Assembly (NCBI GenBank): GCA_900128585.1 | Contig: LT642148.1 | Location: 1 to 64,000, forward strand | Direction: 5' to 3' | From: Stramenopiles sp. TOSAG23-3 | Lineage: Eukaryota | DNA: 64,000 nucleotides | Shown here: one piece after another, positions 19,448-55,342 of the stretch | Layout of the letters: every line of letters starts with the position of its first letter | Position numbering within the stretch: position 1 is the stretch's first letter | The notes under the pieces: generated by a model | What the model saw: only the letters and a program-made list of their open reading frames with translations | What the model was told of the DNA's origin: nothing | Database searches by the model: none | Position numbers and translations under genes: made by a program

Positions 19448-20577
19448 GCGCTAATATTTCAACTTTTCGTTGGCTTCGGGCAATTCTTTTTTAAATTCGA
19501 TATACCGTGTGATATACGTTGAGAATGTGCTAAGGAAGAAGATACACCGTTCGTATGAGTGTTCATTTATTAATGAGTTAGTCGTCTAGTTTATTCCAAG
19601 TGTTAAATGTCGCACATTATAAATTTATTTTGGAGGAGAGGAGGGAGGAGAAGAGGAGAAGAAGAAGAAGAAGAAAGAAAAAAATTAATATAATAATAAT
19701 ATGTACAACAATAATATACATGTATATATTATATAGAATAATACAACAACAACAAGAAAAAAAGTTTTCACAGCAGTGGTTGCTGTCAGCAACAACTGTA
19801 TAGCAGTATAAATTTATCTTTTTAAAATTTTACTGTTATTAGCGCTAACTGTACAGTAATAAAATGAAGAAAAAAAAACACACCAACAAGACAATACATT
19901 CCACCAGCCTGTAGCCACATCATCATAATAATAAAATCTGTATTCTTAATGTGTTTTGATAGGAATAATTAATGTCGTAGGCATACATCATTGGGCAGGT
20001 TTCCACATTCATTTTAAATGTGACACACAGAATCTAATCCATTCGTCCTGTTTTGATTGTTGCACTTTATCATATTCTTCGGTTCGTTGGCAATAAAAAT
20101 AATATTTGAAATTTTTCTTTTTTGTAATTAATTACGTAAATAATAATAAGCTGATGTAATACAATTATTATTTTTTTATTTAAAAAAAAATAATTTATTA
20201 TTATTTATCTATCACAAATCACACGTAGTCGTCGTCGATGCTGTGTCAATGAAAAAAAATCATTTTTTTTTTATTATGAAATTCAAATTATAATAATATA
20301 ATTATTCAGTTGTTGTTGTTATAATAATATCTTCTTCACCACGAAAAGGAATGAATGTCTTTGCATGTACGGCACCACGTATGCATTTAAAATGCATACA
20401 TTTTTTTTCACGTGCCAGTTGTTCACGCGAAAACAAATTGAATACAACGAGCGGCGTCTCAAAAAAGCCGAAACCATATTACAAGCGTGTGAGTGGTGTT
20501 GACAAAGGCAAACGAGACCGCTGGGTGGGTGCGTACTTGAACGCAACGTGTAACGTACTCTCCGCACTGAAGGTACT

Positions 20578-23500: not shown

Positions 23501-26500
23501 TACTGATGGAAACCATCGAAGTGCTGCAGTCTGATACTGAGATACCCAACAGAGAAAGTGGCGCATTGGGAATTCGCAGAGTTCAAGACCATGTCGTACA
23601 ACTGACCGCTCATGTAACAGAAAGTTCAGCAAGTTTGTCCAAATGCGAGCAACGGCTGGAAGACTGCAGGTCTCATCTTAGGAACGCAAATGCTGAGTTA
23701 AGAGAAACTCGGGACAACCAAAATGGCCTTTTGTCCACTATATCTATACTGGAGACCACAGTGGCGAGGGAAAGATCTGAGACGGACAAGATGAGGAAAG
23801 CTCTGGATGAATCAAATCGGCGAAATCAGATGTTTCAGCTTGATGTCGAGGGCCTGAAGCTACAAAATGAGGATATTCGACGGGAATGCGAATCATGGGA
23901 AACACAGCTTAGGCGTGCCCGCGAGCGGTATTTAAAACAACTTCGTGATCATATGAATGCCAGTAAAATCAAGTCTGAAGCTGGCAATGAAGCAGCAGAT
24001 TTGGGGGAGTTCGGGACTGTTGTAGAACACTGGAGAAAATTGACCACCTGTTTGCAAGACCTAACAAACAGAATAGGGGTTGAAATGTCACAAAATGGCG
24101 GGCTGGCGTGGGTTGTTGAAAAATTAAAACAGATGATATTGGACAATGATGTCACAGTAGCAGATGCTCTTAAAATGGCAAAGGCGTCGTCATGGGAAGC
24201 TGAATCATACAGAAGAAAAATTATAATGCTGGAAAATTGTCTTGAGCGATTTATTAGCAAAGCGGATTCTTCGCCGTACTCAGAAATGCAGCTGATGCGC
24301 CGGAGACACATGGCACGAGAGGCCATGCTTCGGGGAAACATCGAGTTTATGAAAAATGCCCATTCTCGCAAGGACGAAGAAATGCGATTGCATCTGCAAG
24401 AAGCGAATATGCGCGTTATGGAGCTGGAAGTTTTATCTAGACATTCCCAGCTTGATTGTCAGTTGGCACAAGCAAGACTTCACGAAGTTCGTGCCGATAG
24501 GGAACTGACGGAAATTTCTCCGTCAGAAACAGAATTAGCTCACTTGCTGCAGTCAATAAAAAATGCCTCTCGGGTTGTTGAAAACCTTGTGACTGACTCG
24601 AGGGCAGACCATAATTCGATTTTGATTAGAATGTCAGAGGGCTTGGTTTCAGATGCACGTATGGATGAAGGTCACGCGCAAGAAGCGCAACTTGAACGCT
24701 TAAACCGAGCTTTAGAAGAGGCAAAACTTGAAATAGATTTACTGACGGAATGGAAAACGGAGGCCATGGCACGAGAAGAGCGGTTGAGGCTTGACTTTCA
24801 AGAAGGGGCCGAGAACAACGGTCTCAAAGCCCAAGAGCGGGCAAAGAGAATTAAGTCCAAGTTTAGCAAACAATTAGTGGAGGAAGCGGCCAGTGCAAAT
24901 AATACGTTGATCGCTAGTAAGATGAAATATGAGAATATCATTGAAGGGTTGAAGGGACAGTTGCGAAATGGAGCACAAACCAATGCGGATATGCCGCGGC
25001 TACAAAATGCACGGAAAGAGCGTGAAGTTGTTGACAATGAAAATCTCAAATTGCTGACTAAGGTAAAAGTTTTGAGCAGTGAGCTGAAAACGTTAGAATC
25101 GCAGCAAATTGCGAAAGAGGGTGCTATAAAGGACCTTCATGAGTATGTAGCGAAAATTGCCGAAGGTGTTGGAATGGCTGGAGCTTCAACAAAGGACGGG
25201 CTAGTTGTCGATACTGCGGATGCATTTGCAACGGAGCTGGTAAATTCAAAAATCAAAATTTCTGAATTACAACGAAAGTTGCGGGTAGCAAACCGGGTGG
25301 AATCGGAGCTAAGAAGAACAATTGCCACGCGTGAAAATCGTATTGCAGATTTAAAAGCAGGAACATCAAAAACTGAATCTCGCGAGAAAATTACACATGA
25401 GTTAACAACGGCGTTGGCCGACGAGCGTGCGCGTGTGAATATACTCCAAAAACAATTATTGGCTGCGAACGAAATCGAAGCTGGCGATACTGACATTAAA
25501 GGAATGTATGCCAAAATTGAACGCATGTCGGCGCGAGAAGAAAAGATGAGGAAAGAAATTATGCGATTAACATTGGGGTCGAAGATGAGAGATGGTGCAA
25601 AAGGGGACAGTTCGGTTGCGTTTGCTGTTGGGAACGAATTGCATGAAGAAGAAGTCCATGGTTTAAAAATCCGAATAAAAGAACTTGAAAACAATAATGC
25701 GTTCGCAGAAGATGGACTGATGGGAAAACGCCTGGCATACCTAGAAAATGCGCTAGAAACTTCGGAAAAGCAACGACAAAAACTGACATCAAAGCTGTCA
25801 AAATTAAATGACCTGAATGGTGATCACCAACAAGTAAGTAAAAAAAGAAACGCACAAATTGGCTCGGGGCCAAGCGAAAATAGTGATCTTGGCGACAATG
25901 CGATAGGGCGCGATACGCCCCTCCCGGCTGATTATAGCACAGAGTTGCGGGTACTTCGCCGAAAATACGACAATGCACTGGCAGAAATAGAAACTTTACG
26001 TGCAGCTTTTAGCAAAAAAGACCAGAAGATAACTGCCCTGCGGAATAACAACAAGAGCCTCAAAGAATGCGAGCATGATCTTCGCTGCGCGCTTGACGAA
26101 TCAAACCAAATGTTATTAAACAATGAATCTAAGCTGAAGGATGAAACGAAGCAAATTGAATCCGTAAGAAGTTCCCTGGAGAAACAGCAAGTGCAGTTTG
26201 AGTCTCAAATTAGCAAAGAAAGGGCAGCGTTGACACAAAGTGCTGTTAAGATTGAGGGAGATCTACGGTCGGAGTTATCGAAAGCAAATGCGCACATTCA
26301 GCACTTAGAAGCTTCTGCCATAGAGCTAAAAGCCCAGCTCACAACAATGACGCGAACAAACGACGAATTACTGGCTCGTATAAAAGATAGAGACGCTCAG
26401 TATAGTAAGGAAGTTACCCGTTTACGGCTGGAGCATAGTGAGCTTCAAGCACGCTCGATTGCCGCGGAGACATCATACAGTGAGGATATGAGCGCTACAT

Positions 26501-29500
26501 CAGCACATGCTCAAGAAGTTGAAGAGTCAAACGCGTTAATGAAGCAGCATCTTTCGGAAATGGCTTCAACAAATGCTGAACTGATAAATCGCTTGCGAGA
26601 CTTTGCGTTTTCAACAGTCAAAAATGAAGGTTGCGATGTTGAGGAACTCCGATCTAAATTCAGCGACATGCAGTCACGATTGGTCAACGCTACGGAAAAG
26701 GTCAAAATGGCAGAGAAGAAGGCCTACCAAGCGAAGATAACAGCCGCGGAGAAAACCAAGTCTTCGCTCGAACACATCACAGAGAAAGCGAAGAAAATGC
26801 ACTTGATGATGGAAAAAATTGAAGAAGAGAGAAACTATTTCACTTCTCGTATATCGAAGTTGGAAAGTGAGAGAAAAAAATTGAAAGAAAAAGTCGATCA
26901 ATTGAACGCACAAAAGTCAGATGCGGAATCCAAGATTGCAGAACTTCTGCACGAAAAAGAAACGCGAAATGATATAATAGCCAAAAAAATAGCAGACTCT
27001 TTGGGCAATGAAGAGCGCTCCCGGTTGCATGAGTTAGACGTGTTGCGAAAGGAAGAAGTAAAAGCGAAGCAAAGTGAAATCGATGATTTGACCGATAAAG
27101 TGCGTTCTTACGAGGCTGACATCAAACGAATAGTGAAGAATGCAACATTTGATAAAACGTCTCTTGAACAGACTACTGCAGATCTAAAACTAAGGCTGGA
27201 TAGAACTCAACGCGAGTTGGAGACAGCGCGGGAGGCGAAGGATAATGCAGTTTATCAAGGTAACCGCAAACTCCGTGAAACAGAAGCGAAAAGTTTTGAA
27301 CAGCTGGACGAATTGCGAAAAGAGTTGGTAGAAATCAAGTCGCATGCTTCTACCGCCGAGATATCGTTGGAGAAAGCCCGCAATTCAGAAGAGAGGCTGG
27401 AGAAAAGAGTCAACTCTTTGCAAAAACAAGAAAAGGAATTTTTGAAACGCAATGAAAAAGAACTAGCAAAACTGCGTGAAGTGAATGATAAAGCGTTAGA
27501 GGGCGCAATGGCCGAGCTTACTGAAGCGCAAGAAAAACTCAAAAAAAGCGAAAACGAAGTCCAGAAGTATAAGGATAAGTTAGAGAGTGAGCGTATAGAC
27601 ATCACCGAGAAGCTGGGGATCATCTACGAGGAGGGAACTCGCAGGCAAGAAGCAAATGACAATTTAGTTGCCATGTTTGAATCCCAAGTGTTATCCCTCA
27701 AGGGTATGTTTAATGATGCTGGGAAAGATGGTGACTTAATTGCAAAATTGGCTGAGCGAACTGCAGCAGTAGAAAATCTTCGCATTCAACTTCATAATGC
27801 CAAAGACAACAAAGAGAAAGTTGTGGAAACGAATAAAACATCTAATTCGAGATTTCACAAAACTAATGCCAAACAAATAGTGGATGTGACGGACCTCTCT
27901 GTTCTGGAATTGCGGTGCTCTCGACTGGGAGTTGAGAAACTCAATGCTGTGACCGAGATAAGGTTGCTTCGGGAAAAAATCGACGACGCTGAACGTGCCA
28001 CTGCTGCTTTGCAGAAACGGTTTACCCAAGTCAAAAAATCTGAAGAGAAGGCGAAAAACCGAATTAAATCTGTTGCCAAAATAGCAAACGGTAAAACGAG
28101 GGCATTGAAGGCTGAAGCAGCACGTCTGAGAGATCAAATCGATGTGATGCGAAAAAATTGGAAACCACCGGGAGAGTGGACTGAACAAGAGAAGATCATT
28201 AAAGCTCTCCGCGATGCAGCAAGGTCATTAAAGAAGGACTTGCAAAAAAAAATTGATGCGTCCCAAAAGTTTGACCAAGAAAAGAAGGACGAGACCAATA
28301 AATGGAAGGATATGGAAAATTCACTTAAAAATTCCGAAGCAAAAATGAAACGGGCGATCAGCGAAGCTTCACGAAAAGCATCTGTGGAGCAACACTTGCG
28401 AAAGAAACTGGATGCTGATAAAACTGAATTGCTGGAGTTAAAGAAGAAGGTTGAACGGTACGAAACTCAAATTAAAGGCTTAAAACGGGCTTTGGAACAG
28501 CGCAGAATTGCAATGGAATCCATGCGGCATGGTATTGACGACCAAAAGGGCAGATTGGCAGCTATTCAGGATACTATACGGAACCAAGAGATCTTGGACC
28601 AATCGAACAAGGAGACCAAAGTTCTCGCAGAGCGTAAATCACGGGAGGCTAAGCGAGCAACCCAGCGTGCCACTGAAGCAGAAACGACTTGTCGAGAAGC
28701 TTTAGACAAAATTTCGGACCTCAAATCCACTGTTGAAAAAATGGAAAAGACTAACAAAAAGCTAAAAGATAGCACTATAAGGAAGACTCTGATTTTAGAA
28801 GCAAAATTATCAGCCGTTAAAGAAAGCGCGTCAATTGGTGTTTTAAATGTCGCGCGAAAATTGGTAGACAACAATCAACGTTTGAGGTCGAGAGTTGGGG
28901 CCTTAAAGGGCGCGTTGATAAGTCCTTCCAAGTCTGAAAGTGTTCATAGTACTGAGCAACTAACATCCGTGGCGACTATGCTTGATATGAGTATGCAAGA
29001 AGTTAAAAGTCTGCTTGGGTCTGCCAAGAAACAGAAAACACCTGCGCAGTCACACGTCCATGGTGAAAGTGTCGGGACCCCTGTTCGCGCTATGCATGAC
29101 CAAGCCCTGGCGAGGTTGGAAAGCGCATTTACGCAAGATCAAGTAGATGGTACTCTCATACAAAACGTTTTGATGCAGCTGATTAATGAAAAACTGGCTC
29201 TTGAGAAAAATTTAGTGGAAGTGCAGCAAGGTCTCAAAAATAAGCAAGACCGTGCTGAAGATGCGCCAGTGCCGGCACCACGCACAGCATATGGGACAAG
29301 ACACGTTGGTACATTAGATTCGAACGAAACTGAAGCGCGAAAAAGTGGTTCAAGAGTCTCAAATAGTGTGGTTAGGGCGTTGCATATTAATCGAAAAGGG
29401 TCTGTCGATATAATTTTGCGGCCGAAACAAAATGTTGAAAGTTTTGGTAACTCTCTGAATCATGCAGAAACGACCTTCATTCCTACGGCTGCCCATAGAG

Positions 29501-29700
29501 CACCCCCCGAATATTCAAGCGTTGCACCACTGCGGCCGCAGAAACGTGCAGCGTTGGAAAGGCGCCTTGAGGAATTGCAAAGTGAGACCGTTATTGCTAC
29601 CCCCGTACCCCGTAGGCATGGGATGCGGGCGATAGGTACTTCGGATTCTGATCAAAGTATTGATATGTCAATGATGTCACCTAGCCCATTTAAGAAATGA
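20578..29700 (+). CDS. Giant 3040-aa coiled-coil protein with N-terminal Ig-like (ASH/MSP-type) domain; probable centrosomal/ciliary protein
   Basis: Uninterrupted ORF; N-terminus IEVRPNELVF..Y...VELFN....I.P....IPAG.S..V.V; remainder E/K/L/R heptad-rich. Confidence 0.85.
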   Translation: MHIEVRPNELVFEHVQLHQSYTARVELFNPHEADIDLAIKPSAAQRYQIRPEQVHIPAGKSSSVMVRLKIMHFPNKKKGKTGQRDYFHMKARYFEQKFFTTFTLEGTPLKHAVKGRKVPERQRKASNIPAGRYLPQTNRVSFNAPGGRAKEIQALYGERPGIANPLPKELPRAPLEKPGGGSHPSRKREGRGAPEYKHRTGETKVEYLEGENNRLAEELEMKERELKLEKEREEDRSQRVLEILREKDLEVQRLKGEHVNLVQQLETVKRKENISTSRHNVQNDDSKEWKLQLEACKQEKAAFEEEVDALRSTVMQLNQTSCGERSSAGIESISKIRDQEEQIEVLISEVAKLREEKENGSWSSAVAHNQNELKSLKYALEEEVKKSGVLMRENASLKNQRVQIDKSAEQLDLANKTIQRLKQDIEVQNRKLDEKDEKIAEVSSWRDDLQKQLESKQQSNKTVANLRQKVTELEHLQQTASQTVIDSEHRLSMAVDQIEALQRDARENSEKQSTGEDPLAIIALKTAKATVDDLQARLNLSLGNERMLKSKISEIMEEEIKMARLEQKRHSGKNPIQFRHTVRSLVMRLDKFRNPDEENKKNDLQAIDYLQKELEAKIVEIVDIRQEMVRQGVEARRRLREAEESLIERNLKIIEYENKLRMHKQGRETEVRELVRSIRILKGNSKLHHQIAGLTAEIASLKKVNLRQSSQSRTYSEQMKVANERSRLSRMEVDGVRKELSRLKIGVAGTNITNVSAEQIIISLCIKRGEDREEIKRLNSTLDGLDSYKRVLPTTQGAQSAKVLKRSLDKHREDLNLLTDSAVSPENCLSILQLQSQRLQCELTTLNNELTERENSYHALQCELIDVKEKHVQEITKRDEAHAKQAASQNRRLASYNTENGILRLDLRKCERELREARARLLNVRTPNTESIRENPVISNKKTQLKHSADKLLASRSEVQKLKSLLKDRATQLSVLMETIEVLQSDTEIPNRESGALGIRRVQDHVVQLTAHVTESSASLSKCEQRLEDCRSHLRNANAELRETRDNQNGLLSTISILETTVARERSETDKMRKALDESNRRNQMFQLDVEGLKLQNEDIRRECESWETQLRRARERYLKQLRDHMNASKIKSEAGNEAADLGEFGTVVEHWRKLTTCLQDLTNRIGVEMSQNGGLAWVVEKLKQMILDNDVTVADALKMAKASSWEAESYRRKIIMLENCLERFISKADSSPYSEMQLMRRRHMAREAMLRGNIEFMKNAHSRKDEEMRLHLQEANMRVMELEVLSRHSQLDCQLAQARLHEVRADRELTEISPSETELAHLLQSIKNASRVVENLVTDSRADHNSILIRMSEGLVSDARMDEGHAQEAQLERLNRALEEAKLEIDLLTEWKTEAMAREERLRLDFQEGAENNGLKAQERAKRIKSKFSKQLVEEAASANNTLIASKMKYENIIEGLKGQLRNGAQTNADMPRLQNARKEREVVDNENLKLLTKVKVLSSELKTLESQQIAKEGAIKDLHEYVAKIAEGVGMAGASTKDGLVVDTADAFATELVNSKIKISELQRKLRVANRVESELRRTIATRENRIADLKAGTSKTESREKITHELTTALADERARVNILQKQLLAANEIEAGDTDIKGMYAKIERMSAREEKMRKEIMRLTLGSKMRDGAKGDSSVAFAVGNELHEEEVHGLKIRIKELENNNAFAEDGLMGKRLAYLENALETSEKQRQKLTSKLSKLNDLNGDHQQVSKKRNAQIGSGPSENSDLGDNAIGRDTPLPADYSTELRVLRRKYDNALAEIETLRAAFSKKDQKITALRNNNKSLKECEHDLRCALDESNQMLLNNESKLKDETKQIESVRSSLEKQQVQFESQISKERAALTQSAVKIEGDLRSELSKANAHIQHLEASAIELKAQLTTMTRTNDELLARIKDRDAQYSKEVTRLRLEHSELQARSIAAETSYSEDMSATSAHAQEVEESNALMKQHLSEMASTNAELINRLRDFAFSTVKNEGCDVEELRSKFSDMQSRLVNATEKVKMAEKKAYQAKITAAEKTKSSLEHITEKAKKMHLMMEKIEEERNYFTSRISKLESERKKLKEKVDQLNAQKSDAESKIAELLHEKETRNDIIAKKIADSLGNEERSRLHELDVLRKEEVKAKQSEIDDLTDKVRSYEADIKRIVKNATFDKTSLEQTTADLKLRLDRTQRELETAREAKDNAVYQGNRKLRETEAKSFEQLDELRKELVEIKSHASTAEISLEKARNSEERLEKRVNSLQKQEKEFLKRNEKELAKLREVNDKALEGAMAELTEAQEKLKKSENEVQKYKDKLESERIDITEKLGIIYEEGTRRQEANDNLVAMFESQVLSLKGMFNDAGKDGDLIAKLAERTAAVENLRIQLHNAKDNKEKVVETNKTSNSRFHKTNAKQIVDVTDLSVLELRCSRLGVEKLNAVTEIRLLREKIDDAERATAALQKRFTQVKKSEEKAKNRIKSVAKIANGKTRALKAEAARLRDQIDVMRKNWKPPGEWTEQEKIIKALRDAARSLKKDLQKKIDASQKFDQEKKDETNKWKDMENSLKNSEAKMKRAISEASRKASVEQHLRKKLDADKTELLELKKKVERYETQIKGLKRALEQRRIAMESMRHGIDDQKGRLAAIQDTIRNQEILDQSNKETKVLAERKSREAKRATQRATEAETTCREALDKISDLKSTVEKMEKTNKKLKDSTIRKTLILEAKLSAVKESASIGVLNVARKLVDNNQRLRSRVGALKGALISPSKSESVHSTEQLTSVATMLDMSMQEVKSLLGSAKKQKTPAQSHVHGESVGTPVRAMHDQALARLESAFTQDQVDGTLIQNVLMQLINEKLALEKNLVEVQQGLKNKQDRAEDAPVPAPRTAYGTRHVGTLDSNETEARKSGSRVSNSVVRALHINRKGSVDIILRPKQNVESFGNSLNHAETTFIPTAAHRAPPEYSSVAPLRPQKRAALERRLEELQSETVIATPVPRRHGMRAIGTSDSDQSIDMSMMSPSPFKK

Positions 29701-30524
29701 GACTGAGATATATAAGTAAATTTTTCGACCGCCTTGCGGCAATAAAGTTCCCAACCCCAATCACCGCCGGTAGCCCCAGCTACCTAGCGGCAATGCGGAG
29801 ATGGGCGGACTGGTGGATGCGAATCTTCCAGCGGAACATACTCTACGTGGTCACAAAGTCCATAGCACCAAGGATCCGAATCTACAACGCCTTAGCCCGA
29901 ACACCCTTGCCAATGGACTACTCCGCCGAAGTAGCCGACACCGTGCCCCTCATTTGGCACCCCCAACACTCGGAATCGGAGTTCGAGACGGAACCGAAGA
30001 GCTCGGAGGACGACCAATCCAGTAGTGACCACTCCAGTAGTGCCCATACTCTAATAGTGTCTCCCTCAGACGACGGCACAGAAGCACAATCCTCAATGCA
30101 ATCCAGTAGTGAGCACTCCAGTAATGCCCCGACTCTAATAGTGTCACCCTCGGATGACGACACAGAAGTACAATCCTCAATGCAACAATCAGATGATAGG
30201 ACGCCAGGCACCAACGCCCTAGTAGACGACGACGATGCTCACGCCCAACCCTTGGATGCTCCGACCCTATCAGTGACATCCTCGGACGAAGCGGACGGGG
30301 GGAAGGAGAAAAGGGACCAGAGCATCGCCAGCAGGAGCACCTCTAAAACATTCACGCCGCTGCTTGGAAAATCACACAGGGATTGTTTCATCTATGATGA
30401 GGCATCGGATGAGGAAGTTGTCTGCGGGTCGTTTAAAATCGTCGCGAATCAAAATATCCAATCGGATCATGGATGGAGTGCATCAGAGAATGATAGTCTA
30501 GACAAAGCGACCAGAGTAAATTGA
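29697..30524 (+). mobile_element. 275-aa Ser/Asp-rich ORF forming the 5' body of the 3'-spacer repeat family; contains two 84-bp direct repeats
   Basis: The ORF overlaps the upstream stop (ATGA); 30015-30098 is repeated at 30099-30182; its 3' part matches 8063-8250, 30765-30930 and 31060-31165. Confidence 0.5.
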
Positions 30525-45018: not shown

Positions 45019-45186
45019 NNNNNNNNNNNNNNNNNNNNNNNNNNNNNNNNNNNNNNNNNNNNNNNNNNNNNNNNNNNNNNNNNNNNNNNNNNNNNNNNNN
45101 NNNNNNNNNNNNNNNNNNNNNNNNNNNNNNNNNNNNNNNNNNNNNNNNNNNNNNNNNNNNNNNNNNNNNNNNNNNNNNNNNNNNNN
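45019..45186. other. Assembly gap preceded by a ~49-nt poly-T
   Basis: Run of N. Confidence 1.
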
Positions 45187-45978: not shown

Positions 45979-46145
45979 NNNNNNNNNNNNNNNNNNNNNN
46001 NNNNNNNNNNNNNNNNNNNNNNNNNNNNNNNNNNNNNNNNNNNNNNNNNNNNNNNNNNNNNNNNNNNNNNNNNNNNNNNNNNNNNNNNNNNNNNNNNNNN
46101 NNNNNNNNNNNNNNNNNNNNNNNNNNNNNNNNNNNNNNNNNNNNN
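45979..46145. other. Assembly gap
   Basis: Run of N. Confidence 1.
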
Positions 46146-46363
46146 CGCTTTCCTACTTTTTAAGAAAATACAATTTAGCTAATAGCCGCAAATAATTTTA
46201 TGGCCTTGGGACAACACCGCATTTCATCTCAAGTAAAGGAAGTTAATTTTTATGGCATAGTGTAGTTTACCAAACCGTTCTCTCTTTTCTCTCTCTCTCT
46301 CTCTCTGGCATTCCAACTCTTCCCATCAAAAGTATCATACCGAAAAGGGTTGGACCCAAATTT

Positions 46364-49300
46364 TTATGGCATAGTGTAGTTGTACATGTCTGGTTCTGGG
46401 GCAGACAGGTTCATTGGCATGCCATAATAATCAAGCTGATCGGCTGGTAGAGCCTCGGCGGTGTACCCAAAAGTATTGTTGTAACTGGCGTACTCGCACG
46501 ATCCGCACCAGTTCGTGTCGCCGGCTGGGCACACTTCGCCCTCTTCTAGGTGAGTAGCGTGAGGATCATAATTGTCCGCGTTCATGTCAGTGCAGCCGTA
46601 TACTTTTTCTGGCCATATGCAGGTCGTCCCTGCTTCATCGGCTACCATCTTGGAGTACACAAAGTCACCATTGGGGGAGTAAGTCATTCCACACTCTTCG
46701 CAGTAAGGGACAGACATTGCGGTTTCGTCACACCACGGGTCAACGACCTCGATGAACTCGCTGGTTTCCTCAGTAGCGTTGGCAGTGTAGTTGACCTCAG
46801 TCCACGTTTCCCAGGTTGTCCCATCATCCTCAACGTAAACGGTGTGGTTGTACTCAGGTACGTGCATGTCGACGGGCTCGAAGTGCGTGGTAACGATGCT
46901 TTTGAAGCTGCAGAACCCATTTCCATCATCGCTCGACGGCTTCGAGTCCCCGTCCTTCCATTGAGAGCACCAATCGCAGTTGTCTGTGCAATAGGCGTGT
47001 CCATCCCCGGGGGGAGAGCAATACATCTGCGCGGTGGTGGAAGATTGCCAATCCCAGCCGTAGTCGGTGGGGTTCCTGCACTTCTCGGCAACCTCTTCTT
47101 TCGTGGCCATGCAGGACGTCGCATCGTATTTCTGGTGATCTACGCCGTGCGGGGGTCTGAACGGCAATCCTGGGCAATCCTCCTCGCACGAGGAGGACGA
47201 GTCGAGGCACTGGCGTGTCGTCGGGCACCACACTTTCCATTGGGCAATGCAATTTTCTTTGGTCTGCTCAATGCAAGTGCGGCTGCCAGCTTGCCAGTCC
47301 CATTCCGTCAACGAAAAGCGACCGCAGTGGTCTTCGCACGCCGTGTCGTCCTTCCATTCTGTATCCTCGCCTCCAATAACGGGGTCTTCGTCGCGGTTGT
47401 ACGGGAAATTGTTTGGGCGGAGACACGTCTTTGTCAACGGGCAATAGGCTTCCGGCTGGGACTGTTCGTACGGCCCCCAGCCTCCCCAATCGTATTTGTA
47501 TTCAACATTGGCCGTTGCATCTGGGCACGCTGCGTCGCACGTTCCTGCCTCGCTGTTTGGAATATGGAAATCCACCACCTTCTCGGTCTCCTCCCACATG
47601 TAACTCACCTCATTGTGCCCCCACACCATCAACGTATCCGTACAGTCCGAGCAGTCCGCCGAGCACATTTGGCTGCCTTCGCACCAGTAGTGACCGTTGC
47701 CTTTGCACTCTTGCCTCATGTCTTTCTGTTCAACGCACGTGCCCGATTTGTTCACTGGAAGTGGCAAATGCTGAACGTTCGCGGGGGTGTACTTGTCCGT
47801 TTTGTCATCTGCGCGAACGGGTTTGTAACAATTGTGGCAATCCATTACGCACTCGCCAGTAAAAGTTCCGTCTTCCTTAGCCGTTTGGTCGTTCGGGCAC
47901 CATGCCATACCGGCCCTTACGCAGGCGTCTTTGTCGGCAACTTCGCACGTTCGTTGTGGGCGATACGTATTCGAGGCACCGTGGTCAACGTGTTTTTTCT
48001 TTGCAAGGTGGTTGTTGGAGTCTTCGTCCCATAAATGGCACTCGGAGGCGCAGTGCTGTACGTCGTACTCCACGCTCTGTTTAGCGGTTTGAATGTTACA
48101 CCGGTACATTCCAGCCCGCTGAAAGTTTGGATCAGCGGCACAGGTATTATTGCCAGATTCAATTGTCAGCGGGTCATTGTTCCAGTCTACACATTTTGTG
48201 CCGGAACAATTGGTGAATGTATCGCCAGAGGTCGGGCAGTAGTATCCCGTGGTCAGCGCCTTTGGTCGCACGCACTCTCCCGTGTCGGTGTCCCCGGCCG
48301 GCGTCCCATCGCACCAATTGCATTTGTCGACGCATTCCGTGCTCCACTGTGTTTTGCACAAGAATTTGTTGCCATCAGCTTTGCACGAGGCCTTTGTCAC
48401 CGGTCCGCACGAGGTCGCGTTGCCGTAGAAAGCATAATTGTTTGCGGAATGGAAGCGTACTCCTTGGTCGGCGCGACTCTCGCTCAGCTGCGTAAAATGG
48501 TGATTGTACATGCCGCTTGCCCCCATGTCCTTCTGGCACGCCCAGTCGGCGCACTCCTCGACGCAATCCTGGTTCAGTTCACAGAACACTTTGCCAAGTC
48601 GCCGGCAAACGTTCGGGTTTGGAATGGCGCACACATGGGTCTTTGGGTCACCGACGAGATGTGGCGTGATGGTGATGTCGATTCCCGCTATCCCGGTGCT
48701 GTTGCCACGGTGGTGGCACTCGCCGTGGCAGTGATCCACGCATTTGCGGCTTTCTGCGCAGTACATTTGCCCATTGGCGTTGCAGGTCGGGCCCGACGGG
48801 GTACCACATACCCTCACGCGCTCGGGGTGGTCGAACACCGAGGAATCCATGCAGTTGAAGCACTTGCCATCGACCACAGGGACACACGCTGTCTTCCCAG
48901 ATTTCGTGGACCTGCAGTACGCTGTCCCGTGTTCGCAACCGGGTGGTTTGTTGGATTCAACTTTTGGCATATTGTCGTTGCCTGGAAGACTATGGCACTT
49001 CTTGGTCATGTTGTTGTACAGGCAGCCCGGGTCCATCTCGCACTCTTTCCAATTCGAGTGCTCCATGCATTTCTTCTGCGTCCCATCATCGTTGCACGTG
49101 GAACATTCTGGGCAGTCTGGGTCGAATCCGGGCAGTTCGCTAGACACGTCAAACCCGGCGCAAAACTCTCCCACGGACGCGTACGTAGGGAAGAACTCTT
49201 GAAAGAAGTGAAAGTCCACGGTAATGCCGTCCGCAATGTGCATCGGGGCGTGCCCCAAATCGCTCAGTTCAATTACCGGCGCTTCGATGTCCGTCTCATG

Positions 49301-49702
49301 CCGAATCGTCAAGTCAACCGGGAACGTTGGGGATACCAGACTGTCCGTGTTCATGGATGACGTGTCGCACACGAAGAACTCCTCTTTTCCGGTCGCCTTA
49401 GATACGTCCTTGGTCATCTTTCCAGTCCCAGGGCAGCACGCCTGTGCGTCGCCAGTTGCATCAAGGCACTGGTTCGCAATGCGGTTGGCAACCTTCGTTG
49501 GAAATGTAGCCTGGCCAGAAATGGTGACTGCATCCAAGGACACGACGCCGCAGTAATCCATGCTCATGCAGATTTTTTGTTCGCCCTCCTCGTCCGCATT
49601 TTTTTCATGAATTTCAAAAAAGAGCCGAAACTCTCCTTTTTCCTTGTCCCCGAAAATTACAGAGGGCAGGCCCGTCTGTTCGTCCTTGATAAAATGACGT
49701 TT
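46364..49702 (-). CDS. Cys-rich repeat C-terminal part of the giant extracellular protein (-1 frame relative to the upstream ORF)
   Basis: The frame is open upstream of the annotated ATG (..KRHFIKDEQTGLPSVIFGDKEKGEFRLFFEIHEKNADEEGEQKIC-MSMDY); no signal peptide of its own; ~11 [YWF]C..C..C..C repeats; GCTDMNADNYDP near the end. Confidence 0.85.
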   Translation of the reverse strand, partial: KRHFIKDEQTGLPSVIFGDKEKGEFRLFFEIHEKNADEEGEQKICMSMDYCGVVSLDAVTISGQATFPTKVANRIANQCLDATGDAQACCPGTGKMTKDVSKATGKEEFFVCDTSSMNTDSLVSPTFPVDLTIRHETDIEAPVIELSDLGHAPMHIADGITVDFHFFQEFFPTYASVGEFCAGFDVSSELPGFDPDCPECSTCNDDGTQKKCMEHSNWKECEMDPGCLYNNMTKKCHSLPGNDNMPKVESNKPPGCEHGTAYCRSTKSGKTACVPVVDGKCFNCMDSSVFDHPERVRVCGTPSGPTCNANGQMYCAESRKCVDHCHGECHHRGNSTGIAGIDITITPHLVGDPKTHVCAIPNPNVCRRLGKVFCELNQDCVEECADWACQKDMGASGMYNHHFTQLSESRADQGVRFHSANNYAFYGNATSCGPVTKASCKADGNKFLCKTQWSTECVDKCNWCDGTPAGDTDTGECVRPKALTTGYYCPTSGDTFTNCSGTKCVDWNNDPLTIESGNNTCAADPNFQRAGMYRCNIQTAKQSVEYDVQHCASECHLWDEDSNNHLAKKKHVDHGASNTYRPQRTCEVADKDACVRAGMAWCPNDQTAKEDGTFTGECVMDCHNCYKPVRADDKTDKYTPANVQHLPLPVNKSGTCVEQKDMRQECKGNGHYWCEGSQMCSADCSDCTDTLMVWGHNEVSYMWEETEKVVDFHIPNSEAGTCDAACPDATANVEYKYDWGGWGPYEQSQPEAYCPLTKTCLRPNNFPYNRDEDPVIGGEDTEWKDDTACEDHCGRFSLTEWDWQAGSRTCIEQTKENCIAQWKVWCPTTRQCLDSSSSCEEDCPGLPFRPPHGVDHQKYDATSCMATKEEVAEKCRNPTDYGWDWQSSTTAQMYCSPPGDGHAYCTDNCDWCSQWKDGDSKPSSDDGNGFCSFKSIVTTHFEPVDMHVPEYNHTVYVEDDGTTWETWTEVNYTANATEETSEFIEVVDPWCDETAMSVPYCEECGMTYSPNGDFVYSKMVADEAGTTCIWPEKVYGCTDMNADNYDPHATHLEEGEVCPAGDTNWCGSCEYASYNNTFGYTAEALPADQLDYYGMPMNLSAPEPDMYNYTMP

Positions 49703-52700
49703 TCCATACCCATACCCGGCTCGTCGTACGCTTCGTCCTCATTTTGCAACAATCTGCGCCGTTCCAACCCTTTGCGTTTTCTTTTCTCCTCTTGTCTCTT
49801 TGCCTTCCTCGCAGCCTTTGCGTCCGCCTTCTTGGCTGCTGTTTTGGCCAACCTATCTGCCTTCTTGGCGTCTTTCTTGTCTTGTTTTCGTGTTTGTTCG
49901 TCTTGTTTTCGTTTAGCCTGCTTCTGTTCTTTCTTTTTGGCTTTCTCCTCCATTATCTGTTCCCGAACGTAATTATCGGGGCCGTTGACGTTATGTTGCA
50001 TTTCAACCCTCATCGGCGAGTCTTTGCACGGCTCGTGGGTGACAACAGCAGTACAGTTGGGCATCGGTCTACCGGTACACCTCACATCTTTCCTCAAGTC
50101 TGGCATTGGTTCCTCTAAATGGCCTATCCTTTTCCCTCGAGGATCGGTGTAAGGTTCAGCGGATCGAACGGGCCGGGCCGAGTCTGTCACGTCATCAAAA
50201 CTGGTATTGCCGCGCAGCCTTTGGCCTCTGGTCACACGCGTGTCGACCCTCTCGTCCTCGGACCTTGGTCTTCTCCCACTCTGCTCCTCGCGGTCCGTGT
50301 CGATTCTTGCGCGCGTGTCACGGGCTACAACCTCCCTCCTTCTCGTGTCTTCCTCTACTGTGCGCACTTCGCGTTGTCGCATTCGAGTGTCAATCTTCTC
50401 TCGGGCATTGTCGTACGCCCTTGCGTCTCTCTCTGGGATACCATCCTCTCTTCTAGTATCTCTCTCATCCTCATCCCTTCTAGTATCTCTCTCATTTTCA
50501 TCCCTTCCAGGATCCCCTCTCTCATCCCGAGCCTCGTCGCGGCGTTGCACTTGGACCCTTTCGTCCCTCCCGCTTGTTAGCGACACAGATCTCTCTGTTG
50601 CTGTCACCACCATTTCACGAGCGCAGCGGTCAACTTCTCTCTCGCATTCGTGGTATGCTTCGCACACACTAATGCACTTGGCCTCTTCTCTGCCACCGGG
50701 GGCGGTGGAGAAATAGTCCTTGGTACAGCCACCGCAGTTGCGATCGCCGTCCGCCATTGTATCAGCGCAATCATCAATTTCTCGCCCCCGCCGCTCCATG
50801 ACTCTTTCCGTGGTGTCCCTTGTGCTTTCACTTCTTTCTGATGCTTCCGATCGGGATGCGCGTTCTTGCCGGGTGTCCCTAACTGCCTCCCGAGGGTTTT
50901 CAATCCGCGGGTTCTCCCGCTCTCGCTCCTCAGGGCGACGCTCCATGTTCATCTCTCGCTCACGGAAGGTTTCGGTAACGGCTGAAGTACCTCTTTCGTT
51001 GGACATTCTGTCGACGCGCTCGTTCACCCTTGCCGTCGTGCGTTCTTGCGTCCTCGCGGTGCCTGAGCCCCTGCCCATTTCGCTAGCGCCTCTGGTCTCA
51101 CCTCGCAATTTACGCAGCCTGCGCCCGTAGTCATGCTGCTTTAAACGGCGGTATGGTGCGAGTGAATCGGGGTGGAATTGCATTTCATGCGTACGGGTGA
51201 AGTGCGCGCCCCCATCGCTTGAGGGCTTGTGCGGAAACGTTGTGTACGTACAAGGGGCCATCTTGTGGTCCATTGCTTCCAGGGACGCACCCATACCAAT
51301 AAGGGCATCGACCGCCTCGTCGACATGGTGATTTGCAACGTATGCATTATTATTCGATTCAAAGTCAGGGTAGACACTCATTGGGTCGTCGGGTTCGTGG
51401 TCCCAAGTTTCCCCCGTGAGGTATAAGTGTTCGTAATCAAACGTGGCTGGGGTGCAGGCTTGGGTGGTATCCTTGTGGCATGCCAAAGATGTGTTCGCTG
51501 CCAAGCTACCGGCGGCATCTGCCGTCTCTACGTATTCGTACATGTGGTCTACCAAGTACTCCTCTGCGGCATACATGTTCTGCTCTGCTCGAAACGACAG
51601 GGCGGCCGAGTGCTGCGTGTGGTTTGCGTGGTGGACCTCAAACTCTGCCTCGGCCAAATCGTGATTGCAGGGCTCAACGTTTTGTTGAAAAAATTCCAAT
51701 TGATCGGCAGAAGCCGTCGTTGTAAGCGCTACCTGAAAGTCAAAGCACGTTTTCTCAACCGTCTCCAAGTGTGCGACTGCTTCCACCATATGGTCCATCG
51801 CAACCTCCATTTCCTTGAACGTGTGAGTCTTGTCGCATGTTGCAGCACCGCACATCGCCGCCTTCTGCGTCGCGGCGTACTCAACGGGTGCAGCAAAGAC
51901 ATCTCCGGGTTGCGCGACGGACTCTTCCGCGTAGTACTCGGGGGTTCCCATTCCTGCGCCAAGCGCAGCTTCAAAGTTATCGTTCATCCAGTCCTGGTGA
52001 CCAACGTCGTGTGCCAGTTCCATAGCATGGGCACCGTGGGGCCCCAAGTCGAACTTGGGTGCGGCGGTGTCGATGTCGTGCATCATGTTTGGGTCGTGCT
52101 CAAATTGTGGGGGGGTCTCCATGTCCATCAATCGACGCCTGGTCTTATGGTGCGCCTTGGCAACACGCCTGGCGCGGAGGTGCGCCTTTCGGACAACGCG
52201 TAGCATTTTGCGGTGAAAGGCGTGTTTGGATAGGGCGTGGCGTTTCGCTGCAAGCAGCCTTCTCCGGGCACGAAGCCTGCGCACATGGTGTGGTCCTTCC
52301 GGTACTTGTTTGGCGATAAAATCCATGTCGCCATTGTCAATCTCGTACTGGTGAGCGGCGTTGCAATCTTCTACCATGATGCCTGTCGTAGGAGACTCGT
52401 ACAAGGTCAAATCCGCCGCTGCAACGGGGGCTACCAAGCGTCGGTACGCGTGGGCGGCAAGAAGAGGGTGGTACTTGGTCTTAACACTCCTTTTGTGCTT
52501 TTTACTGTTCTTGCTCAGGCGACGGTGCTTCTCTTTGAGTCGTCTCACCCTCCGTACCACGTCGTCGTCGTGCATTTGCATAAAATCGCCCGCCATTGGG
52601 CCCATGTGCATGGCCTCATTGCCGCCCGCGGGAGGAAGGCTCGCTGCTGCCTTGAACTCAATGTCGCCAGTGATACATTCGTGCTCCCCGCATGTCATAG

Positions 52701-54639
52701 AACCGTCAAAGTTGCACTTTGCGTGGGGCGCTACGTCTTTGACCATTTCTTGGCAGTACATGCCCTGGCACATGGTGTGCATTTCTTTCATCATTAAATC
52801 GTCCATGCCGTCTGGCGTGTGGGTAACCATGGTCACCTCCGCCTCCGCTATAGCAACACCGGTAAGATCGTCCATCGTATACTCGCCTTCCATTTCAATC
52901 ATCTCGTGGTGAGCATCGCTCGTGATGGTTCCATGCTCCTCGTGGAAGAGACTGGGTATTGGGTGCTCCACCCCGTCATCGTCTGTAAAATGGTCCAAGA
53001 TGTATTCTTGAACACCAGGATCGTTCGCCGAGCAAGGGTGGGCTGCCTCTGGGTGATCGCACTGCTTCATAGTGGTGAAATCCATGTTGAACGCCGCCAT
53101 CGGTGGTGGGGGCTCCATCATCGCTGGGTAGTCTTCGAACACCATTTCCATCTTCAAAGGGTCGTACTTCTCCATGTCCACTCCCATGGGGGGTGCTGTG
53201 TCTTGGGCAACTTCATACGGTTTCTTGTTCGTTGGGGACGACGTGCCCTTGGCTTTTACATAGCATGCATTGTCGTAAGGGAGCATCATGGTGCCTTCCG
53301 GCCTCTCTGGGTCCAAATTGGTTGCGTCTCCCAGTTGGTTCGCGTACACGAACTCCTCCTGCAACGATTTCGAGACGGCGATGGTGCCGTCTGCCCCAAG
53401 ATGCACTACGCCGTCTGCCCCAGCGGGACCACCGGCTGCTACCGTGAACTTGGCGGTATTGCCAAAACCTCCGTCTGTTTCCTCCGGTGTCATTGCGCCC
53501 TCAAATACGAGATCATTAATGGCAGGGTTTCCTGGGCATGAGACCACAATCTCCGAAACAGTCTCTAAGTGCTCTGGGTTCGTCGAACCATCTACAACAA
53601 AGGTGCGTGGAGCCCCCTTCACAATCGTCGTTTGTAGCCCAGAGAGCAATTCGTACGCTTTGTAGTTCGCATGGGCATCGAGATCGACATCGACTGCCGC
53701 TGCCACTTCCGGAGCGTCTTTTTTCAGTACCGTAGCCGTCCATTCAACAGCGTCTTGCGTCATGGTGATGGGGCTATCTTCTGACCCTAGCCCATACTTG
53801 ACCATAAGTGGGTCAATTACTGCCTTTTCTCCCTTAACAGGGTCCTTCATAGTCGGGCAATCGTGCGTTGGGACAATCTGCGTCGTGGTACCGTCGTTAT
53901 ACAGGCATATCTCACATTTCAAGCATTCGGGGTCCACCAACGATGGGTAAATTTCATCCACTGGGGGGGCCGCATGCTCGGCTTCAATGAGTTTCTTGCA
54001 CTCGTTGCAGTGCTTAAATTTGTCCTCTTTGTGCTTCGTCTGTTTTTCTTTCCCTGTCATACCCTCCATGGCCATGTATTTAGCTTCCATACTGACATCA
54101 ATAGGGTCCTTGGGTTCTTCGGGCATCATCGGCGGTTCCATGGCCACGGGCTTATCCCATTTCTCGCCTATGGTACTGGCGGGGGTAATGAGCCCCCTTC
54201 CCCCTAGCCGTCTCCGTTCAGAAGAGGAAGCGGGCAGTGCGGCAGAACTTCCAGGGGTTGCGACGGGGGTTCCCCCGCGCACGCGTGATTCTTTCGTGAT
54301 CTCGATGGCGGCAATCCCCATGCACATGATACATCCAAGACAAAATATTATGCCAATTACAATGCCACAAACAATTTTTCGAAGGCGGTTTGCATCTTTT
54401 TGAGCACGCTCTGCATCTTCTTCCAAGGATAATATTTCAATAAGTGATATGTCGCCATCGCCATCTCTGTCAAGTTTTCTTAAATTGCCGATGGTTTGTT
54501 TTTGCTTTTTGCTTAGTGTGCCCCCACCCTGGGTGAGGCTTCGTTCGATTTCGTTTACGTTGAACGTGTAGTCACTCAGACTTTTCCGTCCTGGGCGCTT
54601 ACCCATTGGGTTTGTTTCAGTCATTTCTACTTCAGCCAT
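49657..54639 (-). CDS. Type II membrane protein: EF-hand, single TM, multiple RRL motifs, His/Met-, Arg/Glu/Asp- and Lys-rich blocks
   Basis: Likely ATG at 54639 (MAEVEMTE); DRDGDGDISLIE EF loop; TM IVCGIVIGIIFCLGCIMCMGIAAI; about ten RRL motifs. Confidence 0.85.
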   Translation of the reverse strand: MAEVEMTETNPMGKRPGRKSLSDYTFNVNEIERSLTQGGGTLSKKQKQTIGNLRKLDRDGDGDISLIEILSLEEDAERAQKDANRLRKIVCGIVIGIIFCLGCIMCMGIAAIEITKESRVRGGTPVATPGSSAALPASSSERRRLGGRGLITPASTIGEKWDKPVAMEPPMMPEEPKDPIDVSMEAKYMAMEGMTGKEKQTKHKEDKFKHCNECKKLIEAEHAAPPVDEIYPSLVDPECLKCEICLYNDGTTTQIVPTHDCPTMKDPVKGEKAVIDPLMVKYGLGSEDSPITMTQDAVEWTATVLKKDAPEVAAAVDVDLDAHANYKAYELLSGLQTTIVKGAPRTFVVDGSTNPEHLETVSEIVVSCPGNPAINDLVFEGAMTPEETDGGFGNTAKFTVAAGGPAGADGVVHLGADGTIAVSKSLQEEFVYANQLGDATNLDPERPEGTMMLPYDNACYVKAKGTSSPTNKKPYEVAQDTAPPMGVDMEKYDPLKMEMVFEDYPAMMEPPPPMAAFNMDFTTMKQCDHPEAAHPCSANDPGVQEYILDHFTDDDGVEHPIPSLFHEEHGTITSDAHHEMIEMEGEYTMDDLTGVAIAEAEVTMVTHTPDGMDDLMMKEMHTMCQGMYCQEMVKDVAPHAKCNFDGSMTCGEHECITGDIEFKAAASLPPAGGNEAMHMGPMAGDFMQMHDDDVVRRVRRLKEKHRRLSKNSKKHKRSVKTKYHPLLAAHAYRRLVAPVAAADLTLYESPTTGIMVEDCNAAHQYEIDNGDMDFIAKQVPEGPHHVRRLRARRRLLAAKRHALSKHAFHRKMLRVVRKAHLRARRVAKAHHKTRRRLMDMETPPQFEHDPNMMHDIDTAAPKFDLGPHGAHAMELAHDVGHQDWMNDNFEAALGAGMGTPEYYAEESVAQPGDVFAAPVEYAATQKAAMCGAATCDKTHTFKEMEVAMDHMVEAVAHLETVEKTCFDFQVALTTTASADQLEFFQQNVEPCNHDLAEAEFEVHHANHTQHSAALSFRAEQNMYAAEEYLVDHMYEYVETADAAGSLAANTSLACHKDTTQACTPATFDYEHLYLTGETWDHEPDDPMSVYPDFESNNNAYVANHHVDEAVDALIGMGASLEAMDHKMAPCTYTTFPHKPSSDGGAHFTRTHEMQFHPDSLAPYRRLKQHDYGRRLRKLRGETRGASEMGRGSGTARTQERTTARVNERVDRMSNERGTSAVTETFREREMNMERRPEERERENPRIENPREAVRDTRQERASRSEASERSESTRDTTERVMERRGREIDDCADTMADGDRNCGGCTKDYFSTAPGGREEAKCISVCEAYHECEREVDRCAREMVVTATERSVSLTSGRDERVQVQRRDEARDERGDPGRDENERDTRRDEDERDTRREDGIPERDARAYDNAREKIDTRMRQREVRTVEEDTRRREVVARDTRARIDTDREEQSGRRPRSEDERVDTRVTRGQRLRGNTSFDDVTDSARPVRSAEPYTDPRGKRIGHLEEPMPDLRKDVRCTGRPMPNCTAVVTHEPCKDSPMRVEMQHNVNGPDNYVREQIMEEKAKKKEQKQAKRKQDEQTRKQDKKDAKKADRLAKTAAKKADAKAARKAKRQEEKRKRKGLERRRLLQNEDEAYDEPGMGMENVILSRTNRRACPL

Positions 54640-55342
54640 ACTTTTGATATTTGTACAGATTTTGTTTCTGCTATATGAAGTGTTGCTAACCAATATTTTT
54701 TGAACGGGGGTGGGGGAAATTAGAATTGTCGGGGTAGAATTGGGCGCGTACACAAGTATTGTAGGGAGTGCAGAGTGGTATTTTAGGTATCTTTTCATCT
54801 CAAACAACTTTCGAAAAATAGTTATCAGTGCTCTGTGCCGCTAAATATTATTGTGTAAAAAATAAAATAAGAGGGGACGCCATTACCACAGGCACTATAG
54901 CATGAAAATATTTTATTGTGATAAAAAAAATAGGAGAGACTAGACCTCTGCCCAATTTATGACGATAACCATTCGCTATTGTCTACCCGTATTTTGATAT
55001 ATCTTGGAAGACATTAATCCAATGAATTTGCCTCACATGACCAATTATGACGATGTTTGCCCATTTTTTTATCCCTTTTTCAATGCGAGTAAGAAAGCTC
55101 GTGTCGATTCTAGCGATGCCCTCCTCGTATATCATTACAGATTTTTGTCGACCCAAATATACTAGACTATGCTATTGACAAATCTGTTCTCGTTGTTTCG
55201 TGTTAAACAAATCACCTATCATTTTATCTATATTAAAATGTATTCTAATGAAATGACCTGACTGACGTCGTCTATTTTTTATAACCACCCAACACCCAAC
55301 CAATATTTTTTTTCTGTAGTACTAAAAATAATAATCATGAAG

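Follow-up and report, generated by a model that had tools for sequence, protein, structure and literature searches.

The heptamer GGAAAAC was proposed as a -1 programmed frameshifting (PRF) site in unassigned dsRNA mycoviruses, namely FpV2, FpV3 and relatives (PMC4881467). There, the heptamer stands in the 0-frame register G_GAA_AAC directly before the stop codon of ORF1, is common to related viruses and is accompanied by candidate downstream structures, while the downstream ORF lies in the -1 frame. A second kind of described system consists of genes split by indels or misassembly in draft eukaryotic assemblies, recognisable by abutting ORFs, continuous orthologues, extra bases in a number not divisible by three, and N gaps. 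The locus described here shares the identical heptamer, its register and the -1 position of the downstream ORF with the mycoviruses, and it shares all of the listed marks with the split genes.

The window, meaning the whole stretch of 64,000 nucleotides that was analysed, carries two very long ORFs on its minus strand. The upstream ORF (49657..54840, minus strand) has 1,727 codons from stop to stop and ends in ..PGMGMENVILSRTNRRACPL followed by the stop codon, and the Cys-rich downstream ORF (46364..49738, minus strand; 1,124 codons in the -1 frame) reads ..GKRHFIKDEQTGLPSV... Where they overlap, at ATG GAA AAC (49707-49699), they are offset by -1, and the TAA that ends the upstream frame (49657..49659, minus strand) is found 13 codons past AAC and 15 past ATG. 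A preliminary description of this DNA had given the same coordinates for ATG GAA AAC and the same offset, and had noted correctly that the Cys-rich ORF is already open in the -1 frame, which it is from 49738. It had read the arrangement as programmed frameshifting or, at least as likely, as an assembly error or null allele. I found that the two ORFs are halves of a single gene in a marine, intron-poor eukaryote, and that the apparent frameshift site is no real recoding signal, with G_GAA_AAC being coincidental Met-Glu-Asn codons.

The preliminary description had suggested looking for the same frame break in orthologues, and had named continuous single ORFs as the outcome that speaks against recoding. 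All 14 related proteins covering the junction were continuous there, with a frame break in 0/14. Three of them reach 97-98% identity (P0034, P0038 and P0042), with 98.4% to the C-terminus of the upstream ORF and 95-98% to the downstream ORF; their residues flanking the junction are those of the window on both sides, and between ..MENV and FIKDEQ.. they hold 15 residues, TSCSSKLKDKMCFGN, which are absent from the window. The missing segment contains two invariant Cys and an N-V-T sequon (N-x-T), and is kept down to the 57%-identical P0010 in the form N-[VIF]-[TS]-[SA]-C-S-x-K-x-K-[DE]-[KR]-M-C. Both ORFs align collinearly and in order with full-length relatives (P0050 and P0058, 2,783 aa; P0061, 2,693 aa); the upstream part matches residues 32-1687 and the downstream part residues 1694-2783, so that 6 residues separate the halves in P0050. 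A homologue search with the 1,713-aa ORF returned P0001 only, and the 55-58%-identical full-length relatives came from a cluster listing.

Read contigs, together with the relatives' proteins, place the defect at 49694..49695 (minus strand), where the window is without 43 bases of the natural population. Four public runs from four studies were aligned to the locus: X13 and X20 (DNA), X2 (polyA RNA) and X1 (RNA). In each of the four, that is in two RNA runs and two DNA runs, one contig bridged the junction and carried 43 extra letters at 49695, and the alignment of all four contigs split at this position. Record lengths compared with the window spans differed by 43 in every case (X1, 5314 vs 5271; X13, 2600 vs 2557; X2, 2502 vs 2459; X20, 1572 vs 1529), while the flanks differed by only 0-13 letters per aligned piece and, for X2, by 0 over 2,459 nt besides the junction. 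An indel of 43, not a multiple of three, in independent sequence from the same species thus restored a single frame in 4/4 runs. The arithmetic agrees with the protein alignment: 15 codons make 45 nt, of which the window retains the two at 49695 (a) and 49694 (t), so that 43 are missing, and inserting 43 bases brings V (49698-49696) and F (49693-49691) into the same frame. Judging from P0034, P0038 and P0042, the 43 bases would encode residues 2-15 of (N-V-)TSCSSKLKDKMCFGN. An exact 20-mer scan of metagenome contigs for the 43 letters gave 11 loci, all of them chance word matches, and blastn of the 9.2-kb locus against those 11 loci gave 0 matches.

Because 43 is not divisible by three, the upstream frame reaches a TAA and the rest of the gene looks like an ORF in the -1 frame; the TAA at 49657..49659 closes the upstream frame only through the absence of the 43 bases. 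The alternative of a one-A homopolymer error or null allele, as put forward in the preliminary description, was right about the kind of defect and wrong in its detail, as 43 bases are missing directly 3' of the heptamer. Likewise, the contigs covering 49699-49705 revealed no repair of the frame by an extra A or by splicing, and carry the 43 extra letters instead.

The corrected model is one gene, broken in the assembly, that runs from 54639 to 46364 (46364..54639, minus strand) and has 2,772 codons plus stop when intact (1,648 + 15 + 1,109), as borne out by the collinear full-length relatives and by the bridging RNA and DNA contigs. The N-terminal part, MAEVEM...GMGMENV, comprises 1,648 codons (49696..54639, minus strand), and the C-terminal part, FIKDEQTG...NYTMP, comprises 1,109 codons plus stop (46364..49693, minus strand) and forms a Cys-rich ectodomain with 84 Cys. 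The ATG at 54639-54637 is the likely start, and the N-termini of the relatives fall within 4-7 residues of its Met. RNA contigs of two runs end at 54662 and 54664 whereas DNA contigs continue, which hints weakly at where the transcript has its 5' end. The fusion of ~2,760 aa that had been predicted from a -1 shift comes close to the intact 2,772 aa in size, although its proposed junction, ..ME-(K/N)-RHFIKDE.., is not the natural one.

The most likely cause of the missing 43 bp, and a reasonably probable one, is that they were lost through a local error in a draft scaffold with gaps, which may have arisen in assembly, gap closing or amplification. N gaps mark the window as a draft scaffold, and two of them lie within 4.7 kb of the 43-bp site. 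One scaffold gap of 167 N (45979..46145) is located 219 bases past the gene's stop codon; contigs of X13, X20 and X2 extend into it, with the same loose-end consensus at 46146. The share of sampled words was at most 0.98 in all 20 matching runs, including the possible source runs X3 and X4. X2 had the same word share (0.98), with the junction as its only difference in the searched stretch, and the equal share of X3/X4 and X2 points weakly to an artefact. The defect differs from a homopolymer miscount in that the loss is a clean 43 bp within unique, GC-rich coding sequence. A second pair of abutting ORFs on the + strand (20554..29700 and 29694..30524) was examined for assembly quality: residues 470-742 of P0075 (744 aa) match the second ORF (29694..30524) with 40% identity, and the N-terminal part of P0075 showed no similarity to the end of ORF 20554..29700.

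A possible but less favoured reading is that the isolate itself has lost the 43 bp and carries a null or truncating allele, either strain-specific or heterozygous, with no recoding involved. Such an allele would yield only a 1,661-residue product without the Cys-rich domain, or its mRNA would be lost. The other long ORFs in the window are intact (3,048, 1,240, 1,065 and 944 aa), so that errors are not widespread in this assembly, as would be expected equally under a real deletion and under a local error. Moreover, the ambiguity of the junction at 49695 is at most one base and the flanks in the window contain no visible repeat of a length that would collapse a de Bruijn graph, a pattern typical of genuine end joining, and cells in culture might do without a surface protein of this size. 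Contigs also drop rare variants, and a minor deletion allele in the sea could escape them. Against a real deletion stand the intact form in 4/4 environmental runs and in 3/3 near-identical proteins, possible source runs that contain no more of the words than runs without the window's junction, and the scaffold gaps nearby. An assembly artefact is somewhat favoured over a true deletion specific to the strain, and the 43-bp defect is flagged here as lying either in the assembly or in a null allele of the isolate.

Programmed -1 frameshifting at G_GAA_AAC, which would join the two ORFs and set a ratio of short to long products, is very unlikely, being refuted by the continuous orthologues that the preliminary description had itself named as the test. 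The heptamer (49699..49705, minus strand) does sit in the correct register with a stop 13 codons downstream, and GGAAAAC has a precedent as a proposed shifty heptamer in the mycoviruses (PMC4881467). However, its seven bases are plain coding sequence for (M)EN, and the peptide ..GMGMENV.. is also present in the intact P0034, P0038 and P0042. In a test of the slippery pattern, G_GAA_AAC was in the 0-frame register, but its XXX is GGA and no homotriplet, and GGAAAAC occurs at a frequency not above chance (10 in the window vs 15.0 +/- 3.7 in shuffles). The small hairpin of the preliminary description (49659..49679, minus strand) exists at the spacing given for it, as a centroid hairpin of 5 + 3 base pairs. 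A stimulatory role is not borne out: the 59-nt stretch that contains it folds at -11.2 kcal/mol (z = +0.53), and 136/200 shuffles fold at least as well. Within the 5-9 nt downstream no stable stimulatory structure was found, since the hairpin starts 19 nt past the heptamer, at 49679. In contrast to the mycoviruses, the frame break is absent from the 14 relatives and from same-species DNA and RNA, which close the frame with 43 more bases in 4/4 runs and make a shift unneeded, and there is no stable structure. At the level of mRNA, 2/2 RNA runs (X1 and X2), which are not the isolate's own RNA, carried the 43 extra letters with the frame closed. Finally, the shifted product would not be collinear with the functional protein, as it is without the conserved 15-residue segment TSCSSKLKDKMCFGN, its two invariant Cys and its sequon. 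Thus, a false candidate for cellular programmed frameshifting was removed that had looked attractive for its giant ORFs, in-register heptamer and nearby hairpin, and the case demonstrates a cheap and decisive test, in that same-species reads and orthologues settle the frameshifting question.

A combination of both readings, in which the isolate really lacks the 43 bp and a little near-full-length protein without the 15-residue motif is rescued by occasional slippage into the -1 frame at G_GAA_AAC, which lies 4 nt ahead of the deletion, is equally far-fetched. If true, it would represent a natural case of a cellular gene in which a slippery site, present by chance, buffers a frameshift lesion.

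That the two ORFs are separate genes, with the downstream one independently expressed from its own ATG, also has very little probability. An ATG does exist at 49567, and JGI gene calls such as P0001 begin inside the upstream part. Nevertheless, each of the full-length relatives is one protein (2,693-2,783 aa), conservation is unbroken through the junction, and the downstream part has neither its own signal peptide nor its own hydrophobic segment; individual contigs also span the two parts, although such bridging alone is no proof of one transcript. The remaining idea that a small intron or another RNA-level event such as splicing or editing restores the frame in the mRNA can practically be dismissed, since neither RNA run (X1, X2) showed a splice joint over the 9.2-kb locus, which agrees with the earlier view that no good phase-compatible GT-AG intron exists, and since at this site the RNA contigs exceed the window in length instead of falling short of it, with the same 43 letters present in the DNA contigs.

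The product of the intact gene appears to be an orphan protein that crosses the membrane once and has a C-terminal domain with 84 cysteines, as far as composition and conservation suggest a function. A single transmembrane helix, probably a signal anchor, is predicted at residues 89-112 (IVCGIVIGIIFCLGCIMCMGIAAI; 54304..54375, minus strand), the only place in either part where a Kyte-Doolittle window of 19 residues exceeds 1.6; by hydropathy there was no hydrophobic segment in the downstream ORF. The same single segment occurs at a conserved, aligned position in P0050, P0058 and P0061. The proposal that this is one protein, in which the upstream transmembrane helix brings the Cys-rich part into the secretory pathway, gains support from these relatives of 2,783 and 2,693 aa with the same single helix. 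On the N-terminal side of the helix lies an EF-hand-like loop (DRDGDGDISLIE; 54436..54471, minus strand) that is conserved in 5/5 aligned N-termini, while the relatives matched Pfam EF-hand_5 only below the threshold (E = 0.09-0.2; 11.6-12.7 bits vs a cut-off of 25.9). The protein would then be of type II (N-in), with a short cytosolic head bearing the EF-hand-like loop, one signal-anchor helix and a lumenal or extracellular part of ~2,650 residues. RRRLG just outside the membrane is conserved and is accompanied by RRL and further dibasic sites, a set that suggests proteolytic release or processing of the ectodomain.

The ectodomain probably ends in a disulfide-rich domain of repeated small modules of the form C-x3-G-x2-[FWY]-C...C-x2-C-x2-C. 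Its 1,109 residues include 12 N-x-S/T sequons, and 83/84 Cys are kept in P0001, P0058 and P0061, 72 of them also in the 31%-identical P0003. Pfam gave no match for either half, and for the Cys-rich domain none at E <= 1; PDB searched by sequence gave no relative, with only noise at E = 0.5, and ESM Atlas gave no usable match. AlphaFold2 modelled the junction region (P0063, 13-row alignment) at pLDDT 41 and 411 Cys-rich residues (21 rows) at pLDDT 51, in which only short helix-plus-hairpin modules reached 70-78. Comparing this low-confidence Cys-rich model by VIA-align with 48,161 chains yielded a best Z of 3.6 and none at Z 5, a result that supports neither a known nor a new fold. The best, though weak, matches to part of the model were furin-like Cys-rich repeats, as in R-spondin Fu1-Fu2 and the Cys-rich region of the insulin receptor (for the pLDDT 51 model: 8xum_B, Z 3.6, rmsd 2.3, 41 aligned; 4kt1_E, Z 3.3; 4zxb_E, Z 3.0). 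Both may consist of small disulfide-linked beta-hairpin modules in extracellular proteins. However, these Z values are far below the 7-8 of the tool's best matches between unrelated structures and Pfam gives no match, so that the likeness to furin-like repeats may serve as a lead only and not as a sign of membership. The giant, Cys-rich proteins with one membrane span described here form an orphan family, for which neither Pfam nor PDB returned a relative. The stretch is present in RNA runs of many marine studies, with 16 of the 20 matching rows listed being RNA and all 20 together coming from 11 studies.

Strand reading and a stop-to-stop frame listing bore out the two long minus-strand ORFs overlapping with a -1 offset at ATG GAA AAC (49707-49699): the upstream frame (49657..54840) has 1,727 codons and ends ..LLQNEDEAYDEPGMGMENVILSRTNRRACPL*, and the Cys-rich frame (46364..49738) has 1,124 codons, is open at the -1 offset and reads ..GKRHFIKDEQTGLPSVIFGDKEKGEF... 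The frame break between them arises because the window lacks 43 bp of conserved coding sequence. A word-indexed protein search with the upstream ORF gave one match, P0001 (JGI, 1,223 aa), whose residues 1-100 were 78% identical to the upstream ORF's C-terminal end, up to ..MENV, and whose residues 115-1223 were 93% identical to the downstream ORF, from F(I/M)KDEQTG; a single frame of P0001 thus crosses the junction and carries ~15 additional residues. Closer and more distant relatives came from the protein clusters to which P0001 and another two matches belong. In a MAFFT alignment, all 14 proteins covering the junction (P0034, P0038, P0042, P0001, P0041, P0045, P0061, P0048, P0059, P0058, P0050, P0031, P0063, and P0010; P0073, which begins within the 15-residue segment, was left out) were continuous, and the frame break recurred in none of them. 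The relatives P0034, P0038, and P0042 (98.4% identity to the upstream C-terminus and 95-98% to the downstream ORF) read ..LLQNEDEAYDEPGMGMENV-TSCSSKLKDKMCFGN-FIKDEQTGLPSVIFGDKEKGEF.. here, with flanks that are the window's on both sides and a middle of 15 residues that is missing from the window in either frame. This segment, whose pattern N-[VIF]-[TS]-[SA]-C-S-x-K-x-K-[DE]-[KR]-M-C still holds in P0010 at 57% identity, comprises a glycosylation sequon and two invariant cysteines. Full-length relatives P0050 and P0058 (2,783 aa) and P0061 (2,693 aa, EukProt) were collinear with both halves, residues 32-1687 of P0050 matching the upstream and 1694-2783 the downstream half.

The 2-kb junction stretch was present in at least 20 runs of 11 studies, all marine or seawater, with 16 rows being RNA. 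Four runs from four studies were compared over 46000-55200, namely DNA metagenomes X13 and X20, polyA RNA X2, and other RNA X1. In each, one contig crossed the junction, the aligner split it at 49695, and the contig was 43 letters longer than its window span (5,314 against 5,271 in X1, 2,600 against 2,557 in X13, 2,502 against 2,459 in X2, and 1,572 against 1,529 in X20), an excess known from alignment coordinates and not from the letters themselves. Contig flanks were nearly or fully identical to the window, with no other differing letter in X2, and no splice joints were reported across the 9.2 kb in these runs. Fifteen codons make 45 nt, of which the window keeps 'a' (49695) and 't' (49694), so that 43 are missing, an exact fit with the protein evidence; inserting 43 letters brings V (49698-49696) and F (49693-49691) into one frame. 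A 20-mer scan for same-species DNA in JGI metagenome contigs gave chance matches only.

The absence is probably an assembly-level artefact. N gaps lie in AT-rich spacers downstream of the gene at 45019-45186 (168 N) and 45979-46145 (167 N), the latter 219 nt past the gene's stop, which makes the window a draft scaffold with gaps; in X13, X20, and X2, contigs extend into gap 45979-46145 with one shared consensus. The maximum share of sampled words in any listed run was 0.98, with about 3 of 206 words expected to span the junction; X2 also reached 0.98, the junction being its sole difference in that stretch. A real, isolate-specific deletion allele is a somewhat less likely reading, which would sit well with the intact state of the other long window ORFs, a junction ambiguity of at most one base and no flanking repeat seen in the window, but is weakened by the N gaps near the gene and by the two possible source runs of the assembly, X3 and X4, whose share of the sampled words does not exceed 0.98, the value for X2. 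The alternative of an assembly error or null allele, raised in the preliminary description, held in kind but not as a one-A homopolymer error, the actual deficit being 43 bases.

Programmed -1 ribosomal frameshifting (PRF) at G_GAA_AAC (49699-49705), the headline proposal of that description, was not upheld: apart from the presence of a relaxed heptamer, no testable feature of -1 PRF was found. GGAAAAC occurred 10 times in the window versus 15.0 +/- 3.7 in shuffles, and the 59 nt 3' of it, with the small hairpin of that description, folded at -11.2 kcal/mol (z = +0.53; 136 of 200 shuffles at least as stable), which is no stable stimulator. Heptamer and hairpin alone carry no weight as evidence; the proposal of GGAAAAC as a shifty heptamer of some dsRNA mycoviruses (PMC4881467) shows only that the lead was reasonable. 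A recoding site was further rejected because the relatives do not share the frame break, translation of same-species mRNA requires no shift, and a -1 shifted product would be without the conserved sequon and two-Cys motif. An intron was dismissed on the lack of splice joints and on contigs that exceed the window's length at this site. As a frameshift signal, the junction is not a real feature, and the value of the case lies in a corrected gene model and a flag on the assembly.

In the intact gene, the start codon is likely the ATG at 54639: the relatives' N-termini fall within 4-7 residues of it, and RNA contigs of two runs end at 54662 and 54664 where DNA contigs continue, a weak hint. The protein then has 1,648 + 15 + 1,109 = 2,772 residues. 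A head of 88 residues, whose EF-hand-like loop LD-x-DGDG-[DE]-IS is conserved but falls short of the Pfam threshold, precedes a hydrophobic helix (residues 89-112, RLRK on its N-side), the only such segment here and likewise single in each of three full-length relatives. Directly past it follows a conserved stretch, EITKESRVRGG...RRRLG, whose RRRLG, 30 residues past the helix, is kept in all five aligned relatives, and then a long Met/His/acidic region and basic RRL-rich and highly charged regions. Ten RRL and 32 dibasic sites fall within the 1,648-residue upstream part (49696-54639, minus strand), the Cys-rich part having one of each; these sites and the conserved RRRLG suggest proteolytic processing. 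The C-terminal domain (1,109 residues) has 12 N-x-S/T sequons, a recurring module, C-x3-G-x2-[FWY]-C...C-x2-C-x2-C, and 84 Cys, 83 of which are kept in P0001, P0058, and P0061 and 72 also in the 31%-identical P0003. I infer a type II membrane glycoprotein with a huge ectodomain that has a disulfide-knotted repeat domain at its end and probably undergoes processing at basic sites. The protein may act on the cell surface or as part of a secreted coat. Pfam, a PDB sequence search, and ESM Atlas gave no match for the protein. Both AlphaFold2 models were poor (pLDDT 41 and 51), and the best fold matches to the Cys-domain model, furin-like Cys-rich repeats (R-spondin, insulin receptor), scored Z 3.0-3.6, well below the unrelated-model level. 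This orphan family is mildly interesting in itself, apart from the frameshift question.

The window is that of a compact, apparently intron-poor eukaryote, with long ORFs on both strands separated by AT-rich spacers and ordinary eukaryotic genes (G6PD, UFD1, ARID/PDZ, MFS). In a neighbouring 1,065-aa ORF (41277-44474, minus strand), Pfam recognised a DXD sugar-binding glycosyltransferase region (Gly_transf_sug, E = 8e-12), along with TPR_12 at 22.2 bits, a weak TPR match short of the 30.1-bit cut-off; this ORF possibly encodes a glycosylation enzyme adjoining a heavily sequon-bearing protein. One copy of a 22-base direct repeat (46359-46380) spans the gene's final codons (..NYTMP*) and stop, and the other (46245-46266) lies 114 bases deeper in the 3' flank, beside a (CT)n run at ~46283-46307. 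A second abutting ORF pair was seen on the plus strand in different frames, 20554-29700 (3,048 codons) and 29694-30524 (276 codons), the latter opening 7 bases ahead of the former's stop, with GTAAAT nearby at 29716-29721. Residues 470-742 of P0075, a 744-aa protein, match the 276-codon ORF at 40% identity, and its N-terminal part does not resemble the final stretch of the 3,048-codon ORF; this pair may be another frame break, an intron or two genes.
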